Assembly: GCA_964594865.1 (NCBI GenBank) | Contig: CAZQMZ010000003.1 | Span: 11,369 to 75,368 of the forward strand | DNA length: 64,000 nucleotides | Direction: 5' to 3' | Source of the DNA: an uncultured Lachnospiraceae bacterium | Lineage (GTDB): Bacteria > Bacillota > Clostridia > Christensenellales > UBA1242 | Shown here: one piece after another, positions 32,005 through 42,262 of the stretch | Layout: each line of letters starts with the position of its first letter | Numbering within the stretch: position 1 is the first letter of the stretch | The notes under the pieces: generated by a model | Databases searched by the model: none | The model's input: only the letters and a program-made list of their open reading frames with translations | Told to the model about the DNA's origin: nothing | Position numbers and translations under genes: made by a program

Positions 32005-33159
32005 TTATTTTTTTCTAGATTGACGACTGACGCTTATTGCAACACCCACACCAGCCATAAAAACTGCAACAGATGTTCCGCCACTTGAAATGAAAGGAAG
32101 GGGAAGTCCTGTTGGCGGAATACTTCCCGTCACCACAGCAATGTTCAAAAGTGTTTGAACGGCAATGACAATTCCAATTCCGCATGCAAGCAAACAACCA
32201 AAACGATCTTTGGCATTTAAACCAATTTTGAAAAGTTGATAGACCAGCAAACCAAAAACAAGAATGACAGCAATGCATCCGACATAACCCAACTCTTCGC
32301 CTATTATTGAAAAAATGAAATCAGATTCGGCAAATGGCAAGAAAAGATATTTTTGGCGCGACTGAAACAACCCCACGCCAAACCAACCACCATTGCCAAG
32401 AGAATAGAGAGATTGGATGAGTTGAAAGCCTTCACCTTGTGGTGAAGCCCAAGGGTCGAGAAAGGCAAAAAGACGTTTTAAGCGATATGGTTCTGTCAAA
32501 ATCAAAACCGGCACCATCACACCTGCCATACACGAAAAAATGATTGTATGCTTTTTCGTTATCCCGCCAACAATCAACATGAAAAATGTGACAATTGCCA
32601 AACACATTGTCACGCTCATGCTTGGCTCGATGATGACAAGCACACACAAAATTCCAGCAACTGCAAGTGGTGGAAGAAGTCCTTTGAAAGATTTGATTTT
32701 GTCATGCTTTTCGGAGAGATAACACGCCAAAAACAGCACAAGCGAAAACTTTGCAATCTCAGATGGTTGAATGGACACTCCAAGAAAATTGACCCATCGA
32801 TTTGCGCCATAACTTTGCACGCCGAAGCCGGGCACAAACACCAAAACAAGCAAGACAATGCTCCCCGCCAAAACCCAATATCGAAATTTTTTGAGAACGT
32901 GATAGTCAACAAAAGCAAAAAAGAACATTGCAACAAGCCCAAGAATGACGCCAAAAATTTGTTTGAACAAGAAGAAATATTCGTTTCCATAGCGATAACT
33001 TGCCGAATATGAACTTGCGCTGTAAACCATAAGACAGCCAAACCCAGCAAGAGCTATCACCAAGAGAATGACAAAAAACTCTTGTTTCGAAAAAATTTTC
33101 TTTGATGAAAAATTTATTTTAAACTTATTTCCAATCACACTCAACGACTTTTTTTTCAT
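32005..33159 (-). CDS. FtsW/RodA/SpoVE-family peptidoglycan glycosyltransferase
   Basis: 10 TM; LQPSEIAKF-like IQPSEIAKF and SGGTS motifs; start MKKKS shares 1 nt with the murD stop (TAATG); dcw position matches ftsW/spoVE. Confidence 0.9.
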   Translation of the reverse strand: MKKKSLSVIGNKFKINFSSKKIFSKQEFFVILLVIALAGFGCLMVYSASSYSASYRYGNEYFFLFKQIFGVILGLVAMFFFAFVDYHVLKKFRYWVLAGSIVLLVLVFVPGFGVQSYGANRWVNFLGVSIQPSEIAKFSLVLFLACYLSEKHDKIKSFKGLLPPLAVAGILCVLVIIEPSMSVTMCLAIVTFFMLIVGGITKKHTIIFSCMAGVMVPVLILTEPYRLKRLFAFLDPWASPQGEGFQLIQSLYSLGNGGWFGVGLFQSRQKYLFLPFAESDFIFSIIGEELGYVGCIAVILVFGLLVYQLFKIGLNAKDRFGCLLACGIGIVIAVQTLLNIAVVTGSIPPTGLPLPFISSGGTSVAVFMAGVGVAISVSRQSRKK

Positions 33160-34460
33160 TAAAATCCTTCTTTCAAATTGCTTAGGATGATATTTTTGAA
33201 GCACTCGCCCCTTTCGGCATAGTTTGAAAATTCATCAAAACTTGCGCATGCCGGCGAAAGTATGACATAGTCACCTTTTTCAGCATCTTTTATACAAAAT
33301 TGCACCGCGTCATAAAACTTTTCAAACACTGCACGCGAATAGCCATATTTTCTGGCAGATTCTGCAATCTTTTCTCTTTCTTGACCGAAACATATCACTT
33401 TTTTGACGGCAAACTGACGGCAAAATAAATCGTCATAGTTGATGTCCTTCCCTTCACCGCCCATCAAAAGCAAAATACTTTTGCCTTTGAATGCTTCCAC
33501 GCACGCTATGGTGCTTGCAACGTTGGTGGCTTTGCTGTCATCAATGAACACAACATCATTCATTTCTCCCACTTTTTCCATGCGATGAGAAGCGGGAAGG
33601 AAGGTCTTGATTGGTTCGAAATAGGCACTTGGTGGAAGTTTGAACTGACTGCATATCGCCACGCTTGCCAAAACATTCTCCAAATTCTTTTCGCCCAAAA
33701 GCGGAATGTCACTTATACTGACAATTTTGCGCTTGCCGGCATATATTTGGTTTTTCCAGACATAGACACCCTTTTTTATTTTATTTTTGGAAAAATAAAG
33801 GCAATTTCGGTGCTCAATTTTTCTTGCATTTTGATCGTCCAAATTCAAAATCAAAACATCCTTTCTCTTCAAATTGTCTGCAATCTTGCTCTTGACACAC
33901 ATATATTCTTCAAAACTGCCGTGCCTGTCCAAATGATCTGGCTGGACGTTCAACACGCACGCCACATCCGCACGAAAAAATCTGCTTGTTTCAAGCTGAA
34001 AACTTGACACTTCACAAACAACAACACTGTCTTTGGTGGTTTTTTCACAAACTGCCGAAAAAGGAAGACCAATGTTTCCGCACAAAAAAGTCTCATATCC
34101 AGCCGACTTGAGAATTTTGTTCACAAGCATACACACCGTCGTTTTGCCGTTTGTGCCAGTGACCGCAACAATTTTTCCGCGTGAGTTTAAGTAGGCAAAA
34201 TCAATCTCGGAAATCACAGGAATTTTTCGTTCTTGAAACCTTTGCAAAAGTGTATTATCTCGGCATTTCACTCCCGGACTTATCACCACCAAATCCCAAT
34301 CTTTTTCTTCCGGATTACGCTCAAAGCCAATTTGGTCAAAGAAGCGCACATCTTCATCGTAAAAACTGACATACGCACTCTTTTCTTGCAAAATTTTGAT
34401 GACCGCTCGTCCACTGTCGCCAAGCCCATACACCAAAATTTTCTTGTTTTTCAATTTCAT
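33159..34460 (-). CDS. murD: UDP-N-acetylmuramoylalanine--D-glutamate ligase
   Basis: GLGDSG N-terminus, VTGTNGKTT P-loop, Mur ligase layout. Confidence 0.93.
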   Translation of the reverse strand: MKLKNKKILVYGLGDSGRAVIKILQEKSAYVSFYDEDVRFFDQIGFERNPEEKDWDLVVISPGVKCRDNTLLQRFQERKIPVISEIDFAYLNSRGKIVAVTGTNGKTTVCMLVNKILKSAGYETFLCGNIGLPFSAVCEKTTKDSVVVCEVSSFQLETSRFFRADVACVLNVQPDHLDRHGSFEEYMCVKSKIADNLKRKDVLILNLDDQNARKIEHRNCLYFSKNKIKKGVYVWKNQIYAGKRKIVSISDIPLLGEKNLENVLASVAICSQFKLPPSAYFEPIKTFLPASHRMEKVGEMNDVVFIDDSKATNVASTIACVEAFKGKSILLLMGGEGKDINYDDLFCRQFAVKKVICFGQEREKIAESARKYGYSRAVFEKFYDAVQFCIKDAEKGDYVILSPACASFDEFSNYAERGECFKNIILSNLKEGF

Positions 34461-34475
34461 ATTTGCTCCGTTGAC

Positions 34476-35441
34476 TTAAATTCCAACGGCCAAAACCCCC
34501 GCCAAAACTGCAAGCGAAACTGCCATTGTTATAACTATATATACGATGACAATTCGATTTTCATGCACTCCTTTTTGCTCAAAATGATGATGAAGCGGTG
34601 CCATCAAAAACACTCGCTTTTTGGTGCGCTTATAATGCAAAACTTGAATGATGTCTGAAAGTGCTGAAAGCACAAACATCACTCCCATGATTGGAAGAAG
34701 AAGTTCCAAACCTGAAAGAACAGCCACGACTCCAATAAATCCCCCAAGCGCCAGCGAGCCAGTGTCACCCATGAATATCTTGGCAGGATAGCAATTGAAA
34801 AGCAAAAAGCCCAAAATGCCACCGCAAAGCCCAAAGCAAAGCATTGCCAAATTGCTCATTTCCATTTCACCAACAACCGCCAAAATTATACCAAAAACAA
34901 GAACATAAACAAAACTCACTCCACCTGCCAGCCCGTCCAAACCGTCGGTCAAATTGACACTGTTGGCAGTTGCCACAAGCACAAAAATAACAAGCGGAAT
35001 GACCGCCCAACCGATGTCAAATTTCCACGAAAAGAAAGATATGCTTGTCCTGTCCGACAAAAAAATATAGACAGCCACCACAACAGCAATGCCAACTTGT
35101 CCAATAATTTTTTGATATGGTCTGAGCCCTTCATTGTGATGATTGTGCACCTTCAAAAAGTCGTCCAAAAATCCAAGCAAAGCATAGCCCAATGTCACAG
35201 CAACTGCAAACCATGCAAGAAAAGAGTCTTCTGAAAATAAAAAGAAGGTTGAAAAAAGGAGCACTATCAAGAAAATAAGTCCGCCCATTGTTGGAGTTCC
35301 TTCCTTTGACGCATGCTTGTCCACATAATGCAAAATACTTTGCGACGCTTTAAGTCTTTTGCAAACTGCCAGCACAACAGGAGCGATTATTGTGGCAAAA
35401 ATTAAACACAAAAGTCCACAAATTATGAATTTAACTACCAT
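34476..35441 (-). CDS. mraY: phospho-N-acetylmuramoyl-pentapeptide transferase
   Basis: TPTMGG, NLTDGLDGLA, MGDTGSLALGG and PLHHHFE motifs. Confidence 0.96.
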   Translation of the reverse strand: MVVKFIICGLLCLIFATIIAPVVLAVCKRLKASQSILHYVDKHASKEGTPTMGGLIFLIVLLFSTFFLFSEDSFLAWFAVAVTLGYALLGFLDDFLKVHNHHNEGLRPYQKIIGQVGIAVVVAVYIFLSDRTSISFFSWKFDIGWAVIPLVIFVLVATANSVNLTDGLDGLAGGVSFVYVLVFGIILAVVGEMEMSNLAMLCFGLCGGILGFLLFNCYPAKIFMGDTGSLALGGFIGVVAVLSGLELLLPIMGVMFVLSALSDIIQVLHYKRTKKRVFLMAPLHHHFEQKGVHENRIVIVYIVITMAVSLAVLAGVLAVGI

Positions 35442-36886
35442 TCTTTCCCCCTATTTGCAATTGGGTTGGAATTTTCAAAACATTCATAAACCACATCAAA
35501 ATCGTTATATGGCTTTTTCACGCCCGCCACTTCTTGATATTTTTCCGCACCCTTTCCGGCAATGATAATCAAATCACCGCCATTCGCTTTTTCAATCATG
35601 TTTCTGATTGCCGTCCGTCTGTCAGGCTCAACAAAATGCTCTTTCTTCATCCCTTTTTCGATGTCAGCGATTATGTCAAGCGAATTTTCGAACCGCGGAT
35701 TATCATCGGTCAAACAGACAACATCGGCATATTTTTCCGCGACGGCTCCCATTTTGTGCCGTTTGTCGCGATCGCGATTTCCACCACAGCCAAACACAAG
35801 ATAAATTTTTTTGTCAGTCAAATTTCGAGCCGTTTTAAGCACATTCATAAGACTGTCCGGCGAATGCGCAAAATCGATGACAACATATTTTCCGTCAATT
35901 TTGCTGACATTAAATCTCCCTTCAACAGGATATATGAAATTCAGCCCGTCTTGCAATTGCTTGCCATTCAGTCCCAAAATATGACAGACCGAAAGCCCTG
36001 CAAGACAGTTTTCGATGTTATATTCTCCAATCAGGTTGGTCTTGACACTGACAACATTGTCACAAACATTGCCGTCGAATCGCGAACCTTCCAGCGAACA
36101 AAAGGTGTTTATGGCAAAGGTATCGCAAGGATTATGAAGACCATAAGTCGTCAACGGAACATCACAATTTCCAATCAATTTTCGTGCCGAATCATCATCT
36201 ACACAAATCACCGCGTGCTTCATGTTCGCTCTTGAAAAGAACTTCAATTTTGTTTGCTCATATGCTTCAAAGTTTTTGAAATAATCCAAATGATCCTGCG
36301 TGATGTTTGTCAAAACGCCAACTTCAAACATAATTCCATGCACCCGCTTTTGTTCGATTGCGTGCGCCGAAACTTCCATGACAACATATTCCACACCGGC
36401 CTCGCGCATTTCATAGAAAGTTTTGTGCAAGAAGTCAGCATCCGGAGTTGTCAGTGGACAGTCCAAAACATGCCCATTATAAAACACTCCATTTGTGCCA
36501 ATGATAGCACATTTTTTGCCGTTACGTTTCAACATCTCGGCGATGATATGCGCAGTGGTGGTCTTGCCATTTGTTCCCGTCACACCAACAATTTTCAAAT
36601 CATCACAGGCACGATGATAAAAATTTGCACATGCGGTGGCAAAAAGTTCTCTCGTATTGTCCACTTTAATCGAGTTTTCATACGGCAAATCAAAGTTGCA
36701 AACAACAAAAGATGCTCCATTTTCTTCGGCTTCCAAACATCTTTCTTCTGCCTTTTGCCGATCTTTTGTCAGGCAAAAATAAATCTCGTTTTCGTCGACG
36801 GTTTTGCTGTTGCGACTTATCTGTTTGATGTCAACATTTTGAAACCTTTCAGACAAATTGTTTCCAATAATTTCTTTAAGAAGCAT
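35435..36886 (-). CDS. murE: UDP-MurNAc-L-Ala-D-Glu--2,6-diaminopimelate ligase
   Basis: VTGTNGKTT P-loop; DNPR motif (LTDDNPRFE) indicative of meso-DAP-adding MurE. Confidence 0.92.
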   Translation of the reverse strand: MLLKEIIGNNLSERFQNVDIKQISRNSKTVDENEIYFCLTKDRQKAEERCLEAEENGASFVVCNFDLPYENSIKVDNTRELFATACANFYHRACDDLKIVGVTGTNGKTTTAHIIAEMLKRNGKKCAIIGTNGVFYNGHVLDCPLTTPDADFLHKTFYEMREAGVEYVVMEVSAHAIEQKRVHGIMFEVGVLTNITQDHLDYFKNFEAYEQTKLKFFSRANMKHAVICVDDDSARKLIGNCDVPLTTYGLHNPCDTFAINTFCSLEGSRFDGNVCDNVVSVKTNLIGEYNIENCLAGLSVCHILGLNGKQLQDGLNFIYPVEGRFNVSKIDGKYVVIDFAHSPDSLMNVLKTARNLTDKKIYLVFGCGGNRDRDKRHKMGAVAEKYADVVCLTDDNPRFENSLDIIADIEKGMKKEHFVEPDRRTAIRNMIEKANGGDLIIIAGKGAEKYQEVAGVKKPYNDFDVVYECFENSNPIANRGKEW

Positions 36887-36980
36887 AATCTCTCCTTTTT
36901 CATATTTTAATATAGAAATTATTCAATCTTGTTGCGAAGTCAAAAAAAGTTAAAATTAGACAAAATTTTCAACCTAAAAA

Positions 36981-38081
36981 TCATTTTTTCACTTTATCCA
37001 CAACTTCTTCAAAAATTGCCAATGCGTCACTTGGAAATGCTTTGACAAGTTGATTTTCTTTCTCCAAATTTGTTTTACACTGCTTTAAAACGGCACTTAA
37101 AATGTCCTTGAAAGACAACCCTTCAAACAAATAAAACCCCAAAGAGCCGGGAATGGTGTTGATTTCGTTGACATAGAGTTTTTCAAGTTTCTCATCATAA
37201 AGAAAATCCACACGCACAATGCCCTGACAATCAAACAAACGATAGACCTTTTCCGTCATATTTTCAATTCGACGCACCAATTTTTTCTCAACCGTTCTGC
37301 TTTTGGATTCAGTGGAGAGATATTTGTCATCAAAGGAATATATCTCCCCTTTGCCCGTCACTTCATTGACCTTTGAAAGAAAACAGTTTCCATCAAAAAA
37401 GAAACATGCACAATTATATTCGCGAAGATTTTCCACCATTTTTTCCACAATAATTTTGTTGTCGAACTCAAATGCCAACTCAACCGCTTTATCAAAATCG
37501 GCGACATTTTTACACACAGAAATTCCAATCGAACTTCCCAAATTCGCCGGCTTGACAATGAGCGGAAATTTGATTTTTTTGAGCACTTTGTTTTTCTCAA
37601 ACGTTCGATATAGTGTCACAAACAATGGTGTGTCAATGTCATTTGCCTTGCAAACATCCTTCATAACCGCCTTATCCATGCATAGCGCCGAAGAAAGCAC
37701 CAACGGCGAACTCTGCGCAACTCCGCACGTTTTAAACACTCCCTGCACCGCACCGTCTTCGCCGATATTACCATGGCAACAATTCAAGACTGCGGAAATT
37801 TTTGCATATTCCAAAAACTTCTTACCCTTTTTCATCATAAGAACATTTTCGCCAAGCACAAAAGTGACTTGACGAAGTTTTTTTCCATATTTTTGAAAAT
37901 TATGATAGATTTTTATGTCGTCTAAATTTTTTCCAATCCACCATCGACCATTGCGATCTATGTAACAAAAAATATAATCATATTCTTCCGGCAAATTTTT
38001 GCCCACTTGCAAAGCCGTTATTATGGAAATGTCATGTTCGACGCTTTTCCCACCAAACAACAAAAGAACGTTTTCTTTCAT
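36981..38081 (-). CDS. ddl: D-alanine--D-alanine ligase
   Basis: LLFGGKSVEHDISI N-terminus; ATP-grasp KPANLGSSIGIS; C-terminal EINTIPG. Confidence 0.93.
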   Translation of the reverse strand: MKENVLLLFGGKSVEHDISIITALQVGKNLPEEYDYIFCYIDRNGRWWIGKNLDDIKIYHNFQKYGKKLRQVTFVLGENVLMMKKGKKFLEYAKISAVLNCCHGNIGEDGAVQGVFKTCGVAQSSPLVLSSALCMDKAVMKDVCKANDIDTPLFVTLYRTFEKNKVLKKIKFPLIVKPANLGSSIGISVCKNVADFDKAVELAFEFDNKIIVEKMVENLREYNCACFFFDGNCFLSKVNEVTGKGEIYSFDDKYLSTESKSRTVEKKLVRRIENMTEKVYRLFDCQGIVRVDFLYDEKLEKLYVNEINTIPGSLGFYLFEGLSFKDILSAVLKQCKTNLEKENQLVKAFPSDALAIFEEVVDKVKK

Positions 38082-38132: not shown

Positions 38133-39365
38133 CTATTCACCAAAACAAACAGACAAAGGCTCTTTGCTTTTGAGTGAACGGTTTGTTATTCCGTTGACGT
38201 TATAGAAAAAAGTTTGTCCAACACGCAAAAATTTTTCAGAACCTGAAATGACAAGAATTTTTTTGTAATATTCTCCATTGAAAACCCCCAGCTCCCGCAA
38301 CTCAATTTGTTTGAAGTTGACAAATGAAAGTTTGTTTGAGCCTTTCATGAAAAGACGTTTCAGTGTGAGATATTTTTCTTCCAATTTTTCGTCAATCTCT
38401 CCATTAAGCCAATTTATCCAAATCTTTTGTGGAAGAGAACGATTAAAGAAAAAGTCAAATTTTGGATTTTTGGTTTTGACTTGTAGATTGAAAATTTCGC
38501 AACATTTGACACGTGCAATTTCCTTAAATTTCACGATGTCATGAAATCCTTTGAACGAAAAACTCTTTTCTCCAAAATTGAAAAAGACAAAACTTTCTTC
38601 TCGACCAGCAAGAGTGAGTTTAACTTTGACATTAATGCAAGAGAAAATGGAATTTTCCAAACCGTCCACTTCCGAAAAAGAAAATTTTGCATTTCGACAG
38701 ATGAAATTTAAATATGACTTTTCTCTCGTCAACAAATTTTCCACCAAAATGCTTTTTGCAAGTCTTTTGAAAAAATAATATCCTTTTTGAAGAGGAAGGT
38801 TGAATTCAACGACAACACTTTTGGTGTCTTTGCTCGAATTTTGTATTTTCAAAAAATGGTTGTTTCCATTGAGCACAAATTCTGTATAATCCACGAAAAA
38901 GTCATCAACAACAAGTGTTTGATGCAAGGAAAAATCTTCAAAATTTGGATTTAAAATTTGATTGTTGACCTTGAAAAACTTGTCCTTGAAAAGCAAGTTA
39001 TAGTTTGAAGAAGATTGATAGTTTATGTTGAGTTTGTTGATCATCTCTAAGAACGCTTTTGAACTTGTATGTTTGCTGAAAATAACAACATTATTCAATC
39101 TCGACAACCTTTTTTCTTTACTTCGGTCGAAACTGTCAGTGGAAATCAACAAATTGAATTTTTCTTCTTTTTCGGCAAGTTCGAATGCTTTGAGAAGAGG
39201 TTTTGTCAGTTGTTTTTCAAATTTAAATATCGGTTTTTCAACATCCACACCGTGTTCAAAAAGGATACGCCGATCCAATTTGTCGTCATACACAATTGGT
39301 GCATGAAATCTCACACGGTTCAAAATAGATTTTTTTGCTCTTTCGATATATTCCTTCTTTGTCAT
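38133..39365 (-). CDS. hypothetical protein, Lys/Phe/Asn-rich, no recognised domain
   Basis: long ORF codirectional with ddl; start uncertain, MTKKEY chosen because the upstream extension overlaps an intergenic repeat; no SD at either candidate start. Confidence 0.45.
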   Translation of the reverse strand: MTKKEYIERAKKSILNRVRFHAPIVYDDKLDRRILFEHGVDVEKPIFKFEKQLTKPLLKAFELAEKEEKFNLLISTDSFDRSKEKRLSRLNNVVIFSKHTSSKAFLEMINKLNINYQSSSNYNLLFKDKFFKVNNQILNPNFEDFSLHQTLVVDDFFVDYTEFVLNGNNHFLKIQNSSKDTKSVVVEFNLPLQKGYYFFKRLAKSILVENLLTREKSYLNFICRNAKFSFSEVDGLENSIFSCINVKVKLTLAGREESFVFFNFGEKSFSFKGFHDIVKFKEIARVKCCEIFNLQVKTKNPKFDFFFNRSLPQKIWINWLNGEIDEKLEEKYLTLKRLFMKGSNKLSFVNFKQIELRELGVFNGEYYKKILVISGSEKFLRVGQTFFYNVNGITNRSLKSKEPLSVCFGE

Positions 39366-39411
39366 GGATTGATTATTGCCAATCTGTGTGAATTTTAGAC
39401 ATTGCAAATCT

Positions 39412-39490
39412 TGCATACATGATGTGTAAATCTTACACTACATAATGTGTGGTATGCAACATAATACGCTATATTTTGTGGTGGTATGCA
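39412..39490. repeat. palindromic element, locus E (4-5 half-sites)
   Basis: TGCATACATGATGTG; CATAATGTGTGGTATGCA; ACATAATACGCTATATTTTGTGGTGGTATGCA; lies between the rnpB terminator and the next gene. Confidence 0.8.
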
Positions 39491-39518: not shown

Positions 39519-39521
39519 TTT

Positions 39522-39879
39522 GTGTCAGTTGAACTGTAAGCCGAGTTCTGTTTTTGATGGTCATCTATCCAGACTTATTGTCGCCAACAAGTTCAAGCGG
39601 TGTTTTTGTTGAGCGTGAAAGAACGCACATTTGCTCAAACTTAACCTTGCATCGGGTGGGGTTTACAGAGCAATGATTGTTGCCAATCATCCGGTGAGCT
39701 CTTACCTCACCTTTCCACCATCACCATACCACATTGCTGTGATATGGAAGTCTATTTCTGTTGCACTATCCTTGAAGTCGCCTCCACCAGCCGTTAACTG
39801 GCACCCTGTTCTTTTGATGCTCGGACTTTCCTCTCTGTGCTCTTTGTGAACACACAGCGACCATCTGTTCAACTGACAA
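39522..39879 (-). ncRNA. rnpB: RNase P RNA (M1-type ribozyme)
   Basis: minus-strand reading gives the P4 5' strand GAGGAAAGTCCGAGC (plus 39822-39831 core) and the P4 3' strand ACAGAACTCGGCTTACAG. P1 pairs GTCAGTTGAAC (39867-39877) with GTTCAACTGAC (39524-39534). Own promoter and terminator. Confidence 0.9.
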
Positions 39880-39926: not shown

Positions 39927-41285
39927 TCATCCAACGTTGAAAATTTGTTTAACTTTTCCTTGTTTGTCAACACTGAACCCTTGCATAATTCCATCTTGCG
40001 AAACTTTGATTGCCACACCATATTTTGCCATTGTTGTGGTTGCTGCAAGTCGCCCGCCACCAAGACTGCCAGCTTCAATTTTGATGATTGCACCAACAGC
40101 AATGATTGTGCCGTCATAGTCAATGATCGTTGCACCATCCACAGATGTCATTTCTTCGATAAGTTTTCTGTCAAGCTCAAATAACTTTTTTCCGCCAACA
40201 ATTTTTCTTATTGCCGTGGTCTTGACTGACTTTGTTTTGTTTAAAAAGTCTTCATACGACAAACTAAATTTTTCAATGATGTTCTTTGCATTGCCGATGT
40301 TATAAAGTTTTTCCGCTTCTTCAAGTTCCAACTGCTTTTTCATATTGAAATGTTCTTCGGAAATGATGTCAGACGCATCGATGTGATTGAGAGCTTCCAA
40401 AGTCTTATCTTTGTTGATATAGGCAATGCACGCGCCATTATATGAAAATGAACAATCCAAAGCAGTGTTGTATATTGCGCGCCTGATCTGCTTTGCACCA
40501 AAAGAAACATTGCTTTGCAAAAGCCTGATGATTTCGTCATGAGAATAGACGCACCAACGCCCATTTCGTTTTGCAAAAAGAAGTTGGTGGGCAGCAAAAA
40601 TCAAAATGTCCGCCTCTTCTGTCAAAACAATTCCAATTCTTCTTTCACTGCAAACCCTTGCCAATCTATCAAAAATGTTTGGCGAAATTGTTGGAACAGT
40701 TTTTGTTCGCTTTAAGTTGAGATAGCCAAGAAGATTCCCGTGTTTGTCAAACTCCAAAAATGAAGAAATACCATCTGTGAAGAGAGCAAAGAAATCGTGT
40801 GACATAATTTGTTGATAGTTCACTTTTGTTGAACTTTCGCTCGTCAATGCCAAATTGACCAAAATTCCAAGTTTGACTTTGGAACCTTCATAACTTCTTG
40901 CTGCCCAACTTTCAAGATAGCTGATTATACCCAAAATTGTGTCCGCCCCGCTTTCCGTGATGCTTTCTATAAGCGCTCTTTCAATCGCCAAATTGTATAG
41001 ATGAATCAAATACATCTTGTCGGTGATGTGCATCAAAGCGATGTCATTGATTTCACGAATAATCGAACGAATGAGTTCCACCTCAAAAGTTTTGAACGCC
41101 TGTCCACGTTTTAAGATAAGACGATAGTCATCCGATTTTGAAGGTTTCAACAAAATGGTGTTGCCCTTTCCAAGCGCAACTTCCATATCCCTTGAAGAAG
41201 ATTCTGTCTCTCCAACAAGATTTGAACCGGTGAACAAAGGGACAATAAGTTTGCCAACAATATCATAGAATTCAAGTTTTTCCAC
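39927..41285 (-). CDS. DisA_N (diadenylate-cyclase fold)-like protein with a divergent active site and an unknown N-terminal region
   Basis: C-terminus VDGATIIDYDGTIIAVGAII...GGGRLAATTTMAKYGVAIKVSQDG aligns by eye with the CdaA DAC core HDGAVI..GTRHRAA..IIVSEETG. A second weaker DAC-like half lies at about aa 170-260. GTG start with AGGAGG SD. Confidence 0.55.
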   Translation of the reverse strand: MEKLEFYDIVGKLIVPLFTGSNLVGETESSSRDMEVALGKGNTILLKPSKSDDYRLILKRGQAFKTFEVELIRSIIREINDIALMHITDKMYLIHLYNLAIERALIESITESGADTILGIISYLESWAARSYEGSKVKLGILVNLALTSESSTKVNYQQIMSHDFFALFTDGISSFLEFDKHGNLLGYLNLKRTKTVPTISPNIFDRLARVCSERRIGIVLTEEADILIFAAHQLLFAKRNGRWCVYSHDEIIRLLQSNVSFGAKQIRRAIYNTALDCSFSYNGACIAYINKDKTLEALNHIDASDIISEEHFNMKKQLELEEAEKLYNIGNAKNIIEKFSLSYEDFLNKTKSVKTTAIRKIVGGKKLFELDRKLIEEMTSVDGATIIDYDGTIIAVGAIIKIEAGSLGGGRLAATTTMAKYGVAIKVSQDGIMQGFSVDKQGKVKQIFNVG

Positions 41286-41455
41286 TGCCCACCTCCTGTT
41301 GTTAATAAACTAATTAGAAAGAAAAATGACACAAAACCTATTTAACTTAATTTTAAAAGATAAAATAAATTTCTGTCAAGCGATTTGGCTTATTTTTTTT
41401 GAACAAGACATAAAATTTTAATCTTTCGTTTTTCACACTGTTTGTCTTTTTCACA

Positions 41456-42151
41456 TTAATTGTCAACGTTTTTAAATTCATCTCTAATGATTTGCAAAGT
41501 TTTGTTTTCAATTCGAGAAATATATGACCGTGATATGCCAAGTTGCTCCGAAACTTCTTTTTGCGTCAGTGCCCTTTGACAACCAATGCCATAGCGAAGT
41601 TTGACAACTTTTTGTTCGCGTTCAGAAAGTTTTTCGTCGATTATTTTGTTTATTTTCTGCATAGTTAAATTGTTTTCCACTTGCAAAAAAATTTCTTCAT
41701 CGTCCGAAGCAAGCAAATCTTTGATTTCCAAATCTTTGTCATCGTCGTTGTTGGAAGTCAAGCTGTTTATGGAAACAACATTTTTATGCTTTTTGTTTGA
41801 ACGAATAAGCATCAAAATTTCGTTGTTTATGCATCGAGCCGCATAGGTTGAAAGTTGCACTTTTTTGCCATAGTCAAAAGTGTCGATCGCCTTGATTAAA
41901 CCAATTGTCCCCACAGACAAAAGGTCATCGGCCTCCAACGAATTGGTATATTTTTTGACAATGTGTGCAACAAGCCGAAGATTGTGAGTGATGAGTTTTT
42001 CTCGAGCTTTTTTGTCGCCATTTTTCATTTTTTCAAATTCTGCTTTTTCTTCTTCAAGCGTCAAAGGTTTTGGAAATCCTTGCGCTGTGTTGACATAGTT
42101 TGTAAACAGACAAATACGACTAAAAAAATAGGCAAAACTTTCAAAAATCAT
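41456..42151 (-). CDS. sigK: RNA polymerase sporulation sigma factor, pro-sigma-K-like
   Basis: YVNTAQGFPKPLTLEEE, HNLRLVAHIVKKY and YAARCINNEILM closely track B. subtilis SigK; hydrophobic pro-sequence MIFESFAYFFSRICLF; start moved to the second Met (AGGAGA SD); uninterrupted. Confidence 0.8.
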   Translation of the reverse strand: MIFESFAYFFSRICLFTNYVNTAQGFPKPLTLEEEKAEFEKMKNGDKKAREKLITHNLRLVAHIVKKYTNSLEADDLLSVGTIGLIKAIDTFDYGKKVQLSTYAARCINNEILMLIRSNKKHKNVVSINSLTSNNDDDKDLEIKDLLASDDEEIFLQVENNLTMQKINKIIDEKLSEREQKVVKLRYGIGCQRALTQKEVSEQLGISRSYISRIENKTLQIIRDEFKNVDN

Positions 42152-42262
42152 AAAATCTCCTACAATGAGATATATGTTGATTTTTGTCAATTTTTGCCTA
42201 AATGTTTAAAAATAAGACAACTTTCTTGGATGCAATTTGCACTGAGCAAATGTTTGTAGTGA

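Follow-up and report, generated by a model that had tools for sequence, protein, structure and literature searches.

A diverged diadenylate cyclase-like protein encoded next to sigK in gut Clostridia comes from a large, uncurated family with an altered active-site motif

What is the function of the protein encoded directly downstream of sigK in an uncultured Lachnospiraceae bacterium, in which a diadenylate cyclase (DAC) fold seems to be combined with an active site that departs from the usual one? We analyzed a 64,000-nucleotide (nt) stretch of this genome (here called the window; GenBank assembly GCA_964594865.1, contig CAZQMZ010000003.1, positions 11,369 to 75,368 of the forward strand), where the gene in question is an open reading frame (ORF) of 452 amino acids (aa) with a GTG start at 39927-41285 on the minus strand. 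An earlier reading made from the letters alone, without database searches (the sequence-only reading), had described its product as a divergent, possibly tandemly duplicated, DAC-fold protein with a noncanonical RHR motif, and had left it between a nucleotide-making enzyme of altered chemistry and a nucleotide sensor that arose from a cyclase. We found the protein to be a member of a large, uncurated DAC-like family, and our reading, drawn from sequence and fold comparisons, leans toward a regulated nucleotide cyclase, most likely a cyclic-(di)nucleotide synthase. The gene appears to add to the DAC superfamily a variant that is new in both its architecture and its motifs, although part of its family may already stand in Galperin's 2023 DAC census.

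We conclude that the C-terminal part of the protein, from aa ~262 to aa 452 (39930-40502, minus strand), is a diverged DAC (DisA_N-like) domain, based on four independent lines of evidence, i.e., the fold, the Pfam matches of the relatives, a profile-profile alignment, and the register of the motifs. The full-length AlphaFold2 model had a predicted local distance difference test score (pLDDT) of 79 and a predicted template modeling score (pTM) of 0.56, and in a Foldseek comparison with the PDB, the top 15 matches were all DisA or DacA (probability 0.99 to 1.00, E values of 2e-3 to 1e-2), with alignments spanning approximately 86 columns at a root mean square deviation of approximately 3 Å. Structurally, the C-terminal domain was matched best by DisA (PDB 3c1y, 9y4s, and 7y0d). 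When diverse family members were scanned singly against Pfam, PF02457 (DisA_N) was matched by 32 of the 117 relatives at E ≤ 1, with a best E value of 4.8e-7, and it was by far the commonest Pfam family among them; one of the relatives, P0217, matched it with an E value of 2.4e-5 and 24.4 bits, which is under the gathering score of 27 bits. Two family members also showed weak matches to NF053872 (DS2_3, the DAC protein of the defense system DS-2) around the DGA motif. In hhalign, the C-terminal profile of the family aligned with a DAC alignment over the whole domain (110 columns, probability 71%, P = 3.7e-5), with the DAC core that it shares with CdaA/DacA (PDB 6hvl, 6huw, and 6gyx) aligned throughout and the motifs in register. 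The DAC alignment comprised six sequences, the CdaA proteins of L. monocytogenes and B. subtilis and four DisA proteins, five of which were taken from PDB alignments, whereas the sequence of B. subtilis DisA was entered by hand, with its PDB matches as the sole check. The sequence-only reading had placed a DAC core within the last 120 aa; the fold was confirmed, but the extent was not, as the domain comprises approximately 190 aa. A helical insert of approximately 50 aa (aa ~303-352; 40230-40379, minus strand), with helices at aa 310-351 in the model, lies within the domain and is confined in the family alignment to the Caccovivens-like Clostridia clade described below.

All four DAC motif regions were found in register by hhalign, pairing TGGCI with xGALI, DGA with DGA, GGR-x-A with GTR-H-R, and KIS-x-DG with VSEETG. 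In the window protein, the counterpart of the DAC "GALI" strand is NGACIAY at aa 283-289, with the core GACIA at aa 284-288 (40422-40436, minus strand, as are all the motifs) and a nearly invariant G284, and it is followed by the DGA motif (D383, G384, and A385; 40131-40139), by a GGR motif that replaces (T)RHR (G410, G411, and R412; 40050-40058), and by S429-Q-D431-G432, the counterpart of SEETG (39990-40001). Among 139 diverse members of the family, which share 25 to 52% identity, D383, G384, G398, and R412 were invariant, and A385, S429, and D431 were nearly so. In a survey of 150 representatives, most showed a DGA...GS.GGGR.AA pattern. The VDGATII (aa 382-388) and KVSQDG (aa 427-432) segments pointed out by the sequence-only reading are present and show little or no variation among family members. 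The same holds for its GGGRLAA segment in place of GTRHRAA (aa 409-415), but the proposed pairing of the two was one residue off by the profile-profile alignment, which sets R412 opposite the first Arg of RHR (GGR-L-A against GTR-H-R) and S429 opposite the Ser of SEETG.

A precedent for this variant motif is PanS, a minimal DAC that belongs to the anti-phage system Panoptoo and has DGF and GGR as conserved catalytic motifs and an active-site floor made of D71, G72, G107, and R108, whose mutation abolishes the synthesis of 3′3′-cUA (Ragucci, Haley & Kranzusch, bioRxiv 10.64898/2026.08.10.743927). Since GGR is catalytic in PanS, the altered RHR of the window protein does not imply inactivity, and by analogy it argues for a variant active site rather than a dead one, moving the odds between altered chemistry and a sensor toward an active cyclase. 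The window protein is a predicted cytoplasmic protein of three modules (aa 1-110, aa 111-252, and the DAC domain at aa ~262-452), two chains of which may pair their DAC domains head to head, each binding a nucleoside triphosphate (NTP). The DGA/GGR floor would catalyze phosphodiester formation to yield a cyclic dinucleotide, either cyclic di-AMP (c-di-AMP) or another species, and the family-specific N-terminal modules may gate the activity or the oligomerization and assembly of the enzyme.

Several observations weigh against this cyclase reading or against the DAC assignment beneath it. The window protein by itself had no PF02457 match in a Pfam hmmscan at E ≤ 1 and so stayed under the gathering score, NCBIfam was silent on a DAC and, like PADLOC, gave no useful match to the protein, and the PDB sequences yielded no DAC match to either the single sequence (phmmer) or a 36-sequence profile (hmmsearch). 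The full-length model has a low-confidence stretch at aa 249-281, over the start of the DAC domain, and with its pTM the geometry between the domains is uncertain. The DAC reference alignment is thin, with six sequences, one of them entered by hand. Within the active site, the His of RHR is replaced by a Leu or a variable residue (L413) and the second Arg by an invariant Ala (A414), and the metal-binding Glu of SEETG has just an approximate counterpart in D431, which is offset from it by one position past a one-residue alignment deletion. Lastly, the family has no conserved effector or receptor gene as a neighbor, which would leave a signal with no obvious reader. The sequence-only reading had named the lack of a significant DisA_N match as what would speak against it; this lack was indeed seen for the single protein, but it was overturned at the family level by the Pfam matches of the 32 relatives, the hhalign alignment, and the uniform top 15 of Foldseek. 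Separately, the direct searches returned matches to KDM5_C-hel, BrxC, and ARP8, which we dismissed as noise, and nothing significant was found for the protein in the viral structure library BFVD.

The best-surviving alternative, although we consider it rather unlikely, is that the protein descends from a cyclase but works as a nucleotide sensor. The DAC domain would in that case bind a (cyclic) nucleotide or an NTP without synthesis, and the binding would switch the N-terminal modules, or the Abi_2 or AlbA_2 effectors fused to some relatives, with a logic like that of the CARF or SAVED sensor-effectors. Such a role would suit the loss of the His and the second Arg of RHR, the solo gene with no conserved partner, the effector-type or nucleic acid-binding domains at the N termini of relatives (Abi_2/HEPN, Schlafen AlbA_2, and HU), and the presence of invariant residues in the middle domain (E133, P202, and W244). 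However, the residues of the catalytic floor, i.e., the Asp and Gly of DGA, the G-R pair, and the Ser with its acidic residue, are kept and do not vary over more than 100 diverse clusters, GGR in this very form is catalytic in PanS, and no sensor role for a DAC fold was found in a limited literature search.

The comparison with known DAC systems places the cyclase reading in a wider context. DAC enzymes have long been seen as housekeeping c-di-AMP synthases, and a role in phage defense was shown in 2026 for DS-2C and PanS. The window protein resembles PanS in its DAC fold and in having a DGx motif (DGF in PanS, DGA here) together with GGR instead of (T)RHR, and its relatives, too, are tied to defense islands. 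However, PanS is a single domain of approximately 150 aa, whereas the window protein has 452 aa and two extra N-terminal domains; Pfam DisA_N detects PanS but not the window protein; and PanS is paired with an S2TM-beta (Cap15-like) effector gene, whereas the neighbors in the window are sigK, rnpB, and then a 427-aa protein with no Pfam match. DS-2C, a protein of approximately 550 aa with DACNG, DACNH, and DAC domains, acts in CBASS-DAC (Liu-DS2), a system associated with the cyclic oligonucleotide-based antiphage signaling system (CBASS), and makes c-di-AMP in vitro; it was reported with a canonical DisA_N domain, inside a CBASS operon that also encodes a CD-NTase and a patatin-like phospholipase. 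In both DS-2C and the window protein, a C-terminal DAC domain comes after uncharacterized N-terminal modules, NF053872 matches the window protein weakly and locally at DGA, and one relative adjoins a CBASS operon. On the other hand, that match reaches 16.8 bits against an equivalog cutoff of 630 and covers aa 370-402 only, and the window gene has no CD-NTase/patatin operon, with the one distant relative standing beside CBASS in a convergent orientation. We found no Pfam match of any kind in aa 1-260 of the window protein, and hence neither DACNG nor DACNH, and no DACN family among the 25 listed of the 54 families matched by the 117 relatives. The architectures of DS-2C and PanS thus differ from that of the window family, and both of these proteins were found via the Pfam signature.

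With regard to the housekeeping enzymes, DisA provides the best structural matches, as mentioned above, and the HU and AlbA_2 fusions of some relatives recall its combination of a DAC domain with a DNA-binding module. However, the DAC domain of DisA is N-terminal and is followed by a helical linker and a helix-hairpin-helix (HhH) module, whereas that of the window protein is C-terminal, with the protein ending at aa 452 without an HhH, and DisA has the full DGA and RHR motifs, whereas RHR is cut to a single Arg in the window protein. CdaA carries three N-terminal transmembrane helices. The window protein differs from CdaA in lacking transmembrane helices, a full RHR, and SEETG.

The family extends far beyond the Clostridia. 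A 90%-clustered database gave 638 matches, and at E ≤ 0.001 there were 1162 clusters at the 50% identity level, 371 of them at 1e-30. Distant members occur in Hyphomicrobiales, Verrucomicrobiota (including the cultured Prosthecobacter fluviatilis KACC 12649, locus L073), Acidobacteriota, Bryobacterales, Ignavibacteriales, deltaproteobacteria, and Acidimicrobiales, as well as in many soil and sediment metagenomes. Across 78 distant loci, the neighbors were highly variable and no conserved partner gene was found; the commonest neighbor was hsdM, present near the family gene in 6 loci compared to approximately 0.3 by chance (a rough estimate assuming one hsdM per genome). At locus L071, the family gene (X) lies inside a type I restriction-modification (R-M) operon in the order hsdM-hsdS-X-hsdR, and L072 and L074 are similar. 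In these three metagenome-assembled genomes (MAGs) of Verrucomicrobiota, Bryobacterales, and Acidobacteriota (L071:1360-9497, L072:1800-6236, and L074:922-5466), the family gene stands between or after hsdS and before hsdR, a placement typical of accessory or guard defense genes. At other distant loci, the nearby genes encode a type IIG R-M enzyme, Ymh and LexA-like proteins, and an SMC-like ATPase, and the further neighbors include PAPS-reductase (PAPS_reduct) and HNH genes, DUF3800, and a resolvase. In most phyla, the family is a solo gene in defense or mobile contexts.

On an A. vitis plasmid (NZ_AP023285.1, L147:6971-12771), a family member annotated as a "hypothetical protein" (WP_235678681.1) faces, in convergent orientation, a full type II CBASS operon, which encodes a patatin, a DncV-like CD-NTase, a ThiF-like E1, and a JAB/MPN protein, and the arrangement echoes, by analogy, the reported association of CBASS with DAC. 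A plasmid of Bacillus bombysepticus carries another member among AAA/HNH, NucS-like, and recombinase genes, and the Prokaryotic Genome Annotation Pipeline (PGAP) had named this one "DisA nucleotide-binding domain protein." Extra N-terminal domains were observed in P0248, P0136, and P0153, namely Abi_2 (HEPN-type), Schlafen AlbA_2, and HU; in the Abi_2 form, the family match starts at approximately aa 112 of the query, and the first domain seems to be replaced. A gene for a PF01156 inosine-uridine nucleoside hydrolase recurs near a distant subgroup on contigs from gut and other metagenomes (L117, L119, L122, L126, and L142), and in L122 it is directly upstream of the family gene. The sole match in a phage collection, H5, was on MT837587.1, an unannotated 6.6-kb contig from human feces labeled "Bacteriophage sp.," whose member is 28% identical to P0170 across 69% of its length.

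A large family that spans many phyla below the Pfam signature, has a PanS-type DGx/GGR floor, and is enriched near R-M and other defense genes makes a testable candidate class of immune nucleotide cyclases or cyclase-derived sensors, and the chemistry of the window protein could be settled by simple in vitro assays. We would go further only tentatively, in suggesting that the family might be a third, unrecognized class of defense-associated DAC cyclases that was missed by Pfam DisA_N, that as a solo gene in type I R-M operons it might guard restriction, and that the gut Clostridia lineage might have domesticated it as a core constitutive synthase, possibly replacing or supplementing CdaA or DisA. 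The Clostridia clade also supplies a natural case of a defense-type gene fixed as a core gene, and one that is within reach via many gut MAGs.

In this lineage, the gene is carried by 68 species-level genomes of uncultured gut Clostridia, several of which are Candidatus Caccovivens, with 48 to 87% identity. The order smc-ftsY-(SDR)-sigK-X-(rnpB)-hyp427, where X is the DAC-like gene and hyp427 the ORF of 427 aa, was kept in most of the 68 loci, and sigK was directly upstream in 53 of them, so that the check on the conservation of the sigK neighborhood proposed by the sequence-only reading came out in favor of a conserved order. The identity of the DAC-like protein falls alongside that of SMC, FtsY, and SigK, which is the pattern expected from vertical inheritance in this clade. 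The gap between sigK and the gene, 170 nt on the same strand, contains a near-consensus sigma-A-type promoter-like site, TTGACA-N18-TAAAAT, with 11 of 12 matches (41350-41379, minus strand), and an equivalent site was found in 50 of 61 related loci, compared to 3.5 expected from shuffles and 0 to 2 in coding controls. From the window site, a transcript is predicted to begin approximately 7 nt downstream of 41350; no public run of reads or transcripts was listed for this region. Eight loci have no sigK in the flank and yet retain the gene (L043-L046, L048, L049, L066, and L047, the last with a limited flank), the neighbors being RNase J and an O-methyltransferase in L043 and a TauE-family exporter in L066, and these relocated copies keep the promoter-like site. 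In Caccovivens-like gut Clostridia, the gene thus appears to be a vertically inherited core gene with its own predicted sigma-A-type promoter.

These data also bear on a second alternative, which we regard as improbable, that the gene encodes a sporulation protein tied to sigma-K, being either cotranscribed with sigK or a member of the sigma-K regulon. In its favor, the order of sigK and the gene persists in the majority of related Clostridia loci, even where protein identity is as low as 50%, and no terminator-like site was found between the two genes. However, the near-consensus promoter site in the gap recurs in most of the related loci, the loci without sigK still keep both the gene and the promoter, and members of the family occur in phyla for which sporulation is not known, among them Verrucomicrobiota, Acidobacteriota, and Alphaproteobacteria. 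Moreover, because the whole smc-ftsY-sigK-X-rnpB block is syntenic, the adjacency of sigK carries little information. A functional link to sigK, as implied by the stress that the sequence-only reading laid on adjacency, was therefore not upheld, and the adjacency looks like synteny rather than co-regulation.

Regarding the modules in front of the DAC domain, the first approximately 250 aa have no match to any curated family, which extends the unmatched N terminus of approximately 160 aa noted in the sequence-only reading. The N-terminal family-specific domain (aa 1-110; 40956-41285, minus strand) is predicted by the AlphaFold2 models to consist of a helix, four strands, and two helices, has PLFTGS and RxQxF motifs, and had no match in Pfam, NCBIfam, PADLOC, or the PDB; it is missing in some relatives, in which the family match starts at approximately aa 85-112. 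The middle alpha/beta domain (aa 111-252; 40530-40955, minus strand), which by the model and hhalign is not a DAC fold, has an invariant E133 (in TYEG), P202, and W244, and is probably more than a spacer because it has invariant residues of its own. When aa 1-254 were modeled separately (pLDDT 85, pTM 0.84), the weak fold matches were to longin, Roadblock, and PAS-type folds, and Robl_LC7 was weakly matched by 4 of the 117 relatives (best E value, 0.0098); the modeled middle domain weakly resembles Roadblock/LC7 or longin folds. The third alternative, a tandem duplication with two DAC folds in one chain forming an intramolecular pseudo-dimer, is very improbable, since the superficial parallel in secondary-structure order between aa 114-246 and a DAC (helix, strand, helices, two strands, helix, and three or four strands) and an hhalign match of aa 105-252 to the C-terminal domain in the register proposed by the sequence-only reading (60 columns, P = 0.009) are set against a probability of just 4.5% for that alignment, a P value of 0.18 for the middle region against the six true DAC sequences, the lack of any DAC protein among the best 50 of 161 PDB matches (E ≤ 10) to the confident aa 1-254 model, none of which was significant, and the lack of DGA, GGR, and S-x-D-G motifs in the middle domain. 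The strand-strand-helix-strand-strand-strand pattern common to both regions is generic, and neither the second DAC-like half at aa 170-260 nor the packing of two DAC folds was supported by hhalign or by the structure model and fold search.

The gene itself is a real ORF, and its GTG start, the Shine-Dalgarno sequence AGGAGG (41292-41297, minus strand, with a 6-nt spacer to the start codon), and the distance of 170 bp downstream of sigK were all present as the sequence-only reading had described. Its start call is sound because the homologues in the family alignment begin at the matching Met/Val (MEK/MDKxEFY). The upstream neighbor at 41456-42190 (minus strand) was confirmed to be SigK-like by NCBIfam profiles, with 257.5 bits against a cutoff of 252 for PRK05803 and lower scores for the SigE models; it is a syntenic neighbor. 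This sigK is an unbroken ORF of 244 aa without a skin-like intervening element.

The neighborhood of the gene in the window is a housekeeping one, with the order plsX, rnc, smc, ftsY, SDR, sigK, the DAC-like gene, rnpB, the 427-aa orphan, ddl, mur genes, mraY, and spoVE/ftsW. No canonical DAC was found elsewhere in the 64-kb window by a DGA...RHR regular expression search of the six-frame translations, nor was there a c-di-AMP riboswitch, the Rfam matches in the window being rnpB and one tRNA only. Directly downstream of the DAC-like gene is rnpB (RNase P RNA class A, 275 bits; 39521-39876, minus strand), which carries an extended -10 promoter-like site of its own, TTGATT-17-TG-TACAAT (39912-39884, minus strand), beginning 15 nt past the stop codon of the DAC-like gene, and a strong terminator-like hairpin at 39521-39496 (minus strand). 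It is followed by hyp427 (38133-39416, minus strand), which had no Pfam, NCBIfam, or PADLOC match and whose position is kept in most related Clostridia genomes at 28 to 77% identity; hyp427 was ruled out as a partner of the DAC-like gene, being missing from several loci that retain the latter. Further downstream, a dcw-type cell wall cluster (32005-38081, minus strand) encodes a Ddl-like ligase, two Mur ligases, an MraY-like Glycos_transf_4 protein, and an FtsW/RodA/SpoVE-family protein.

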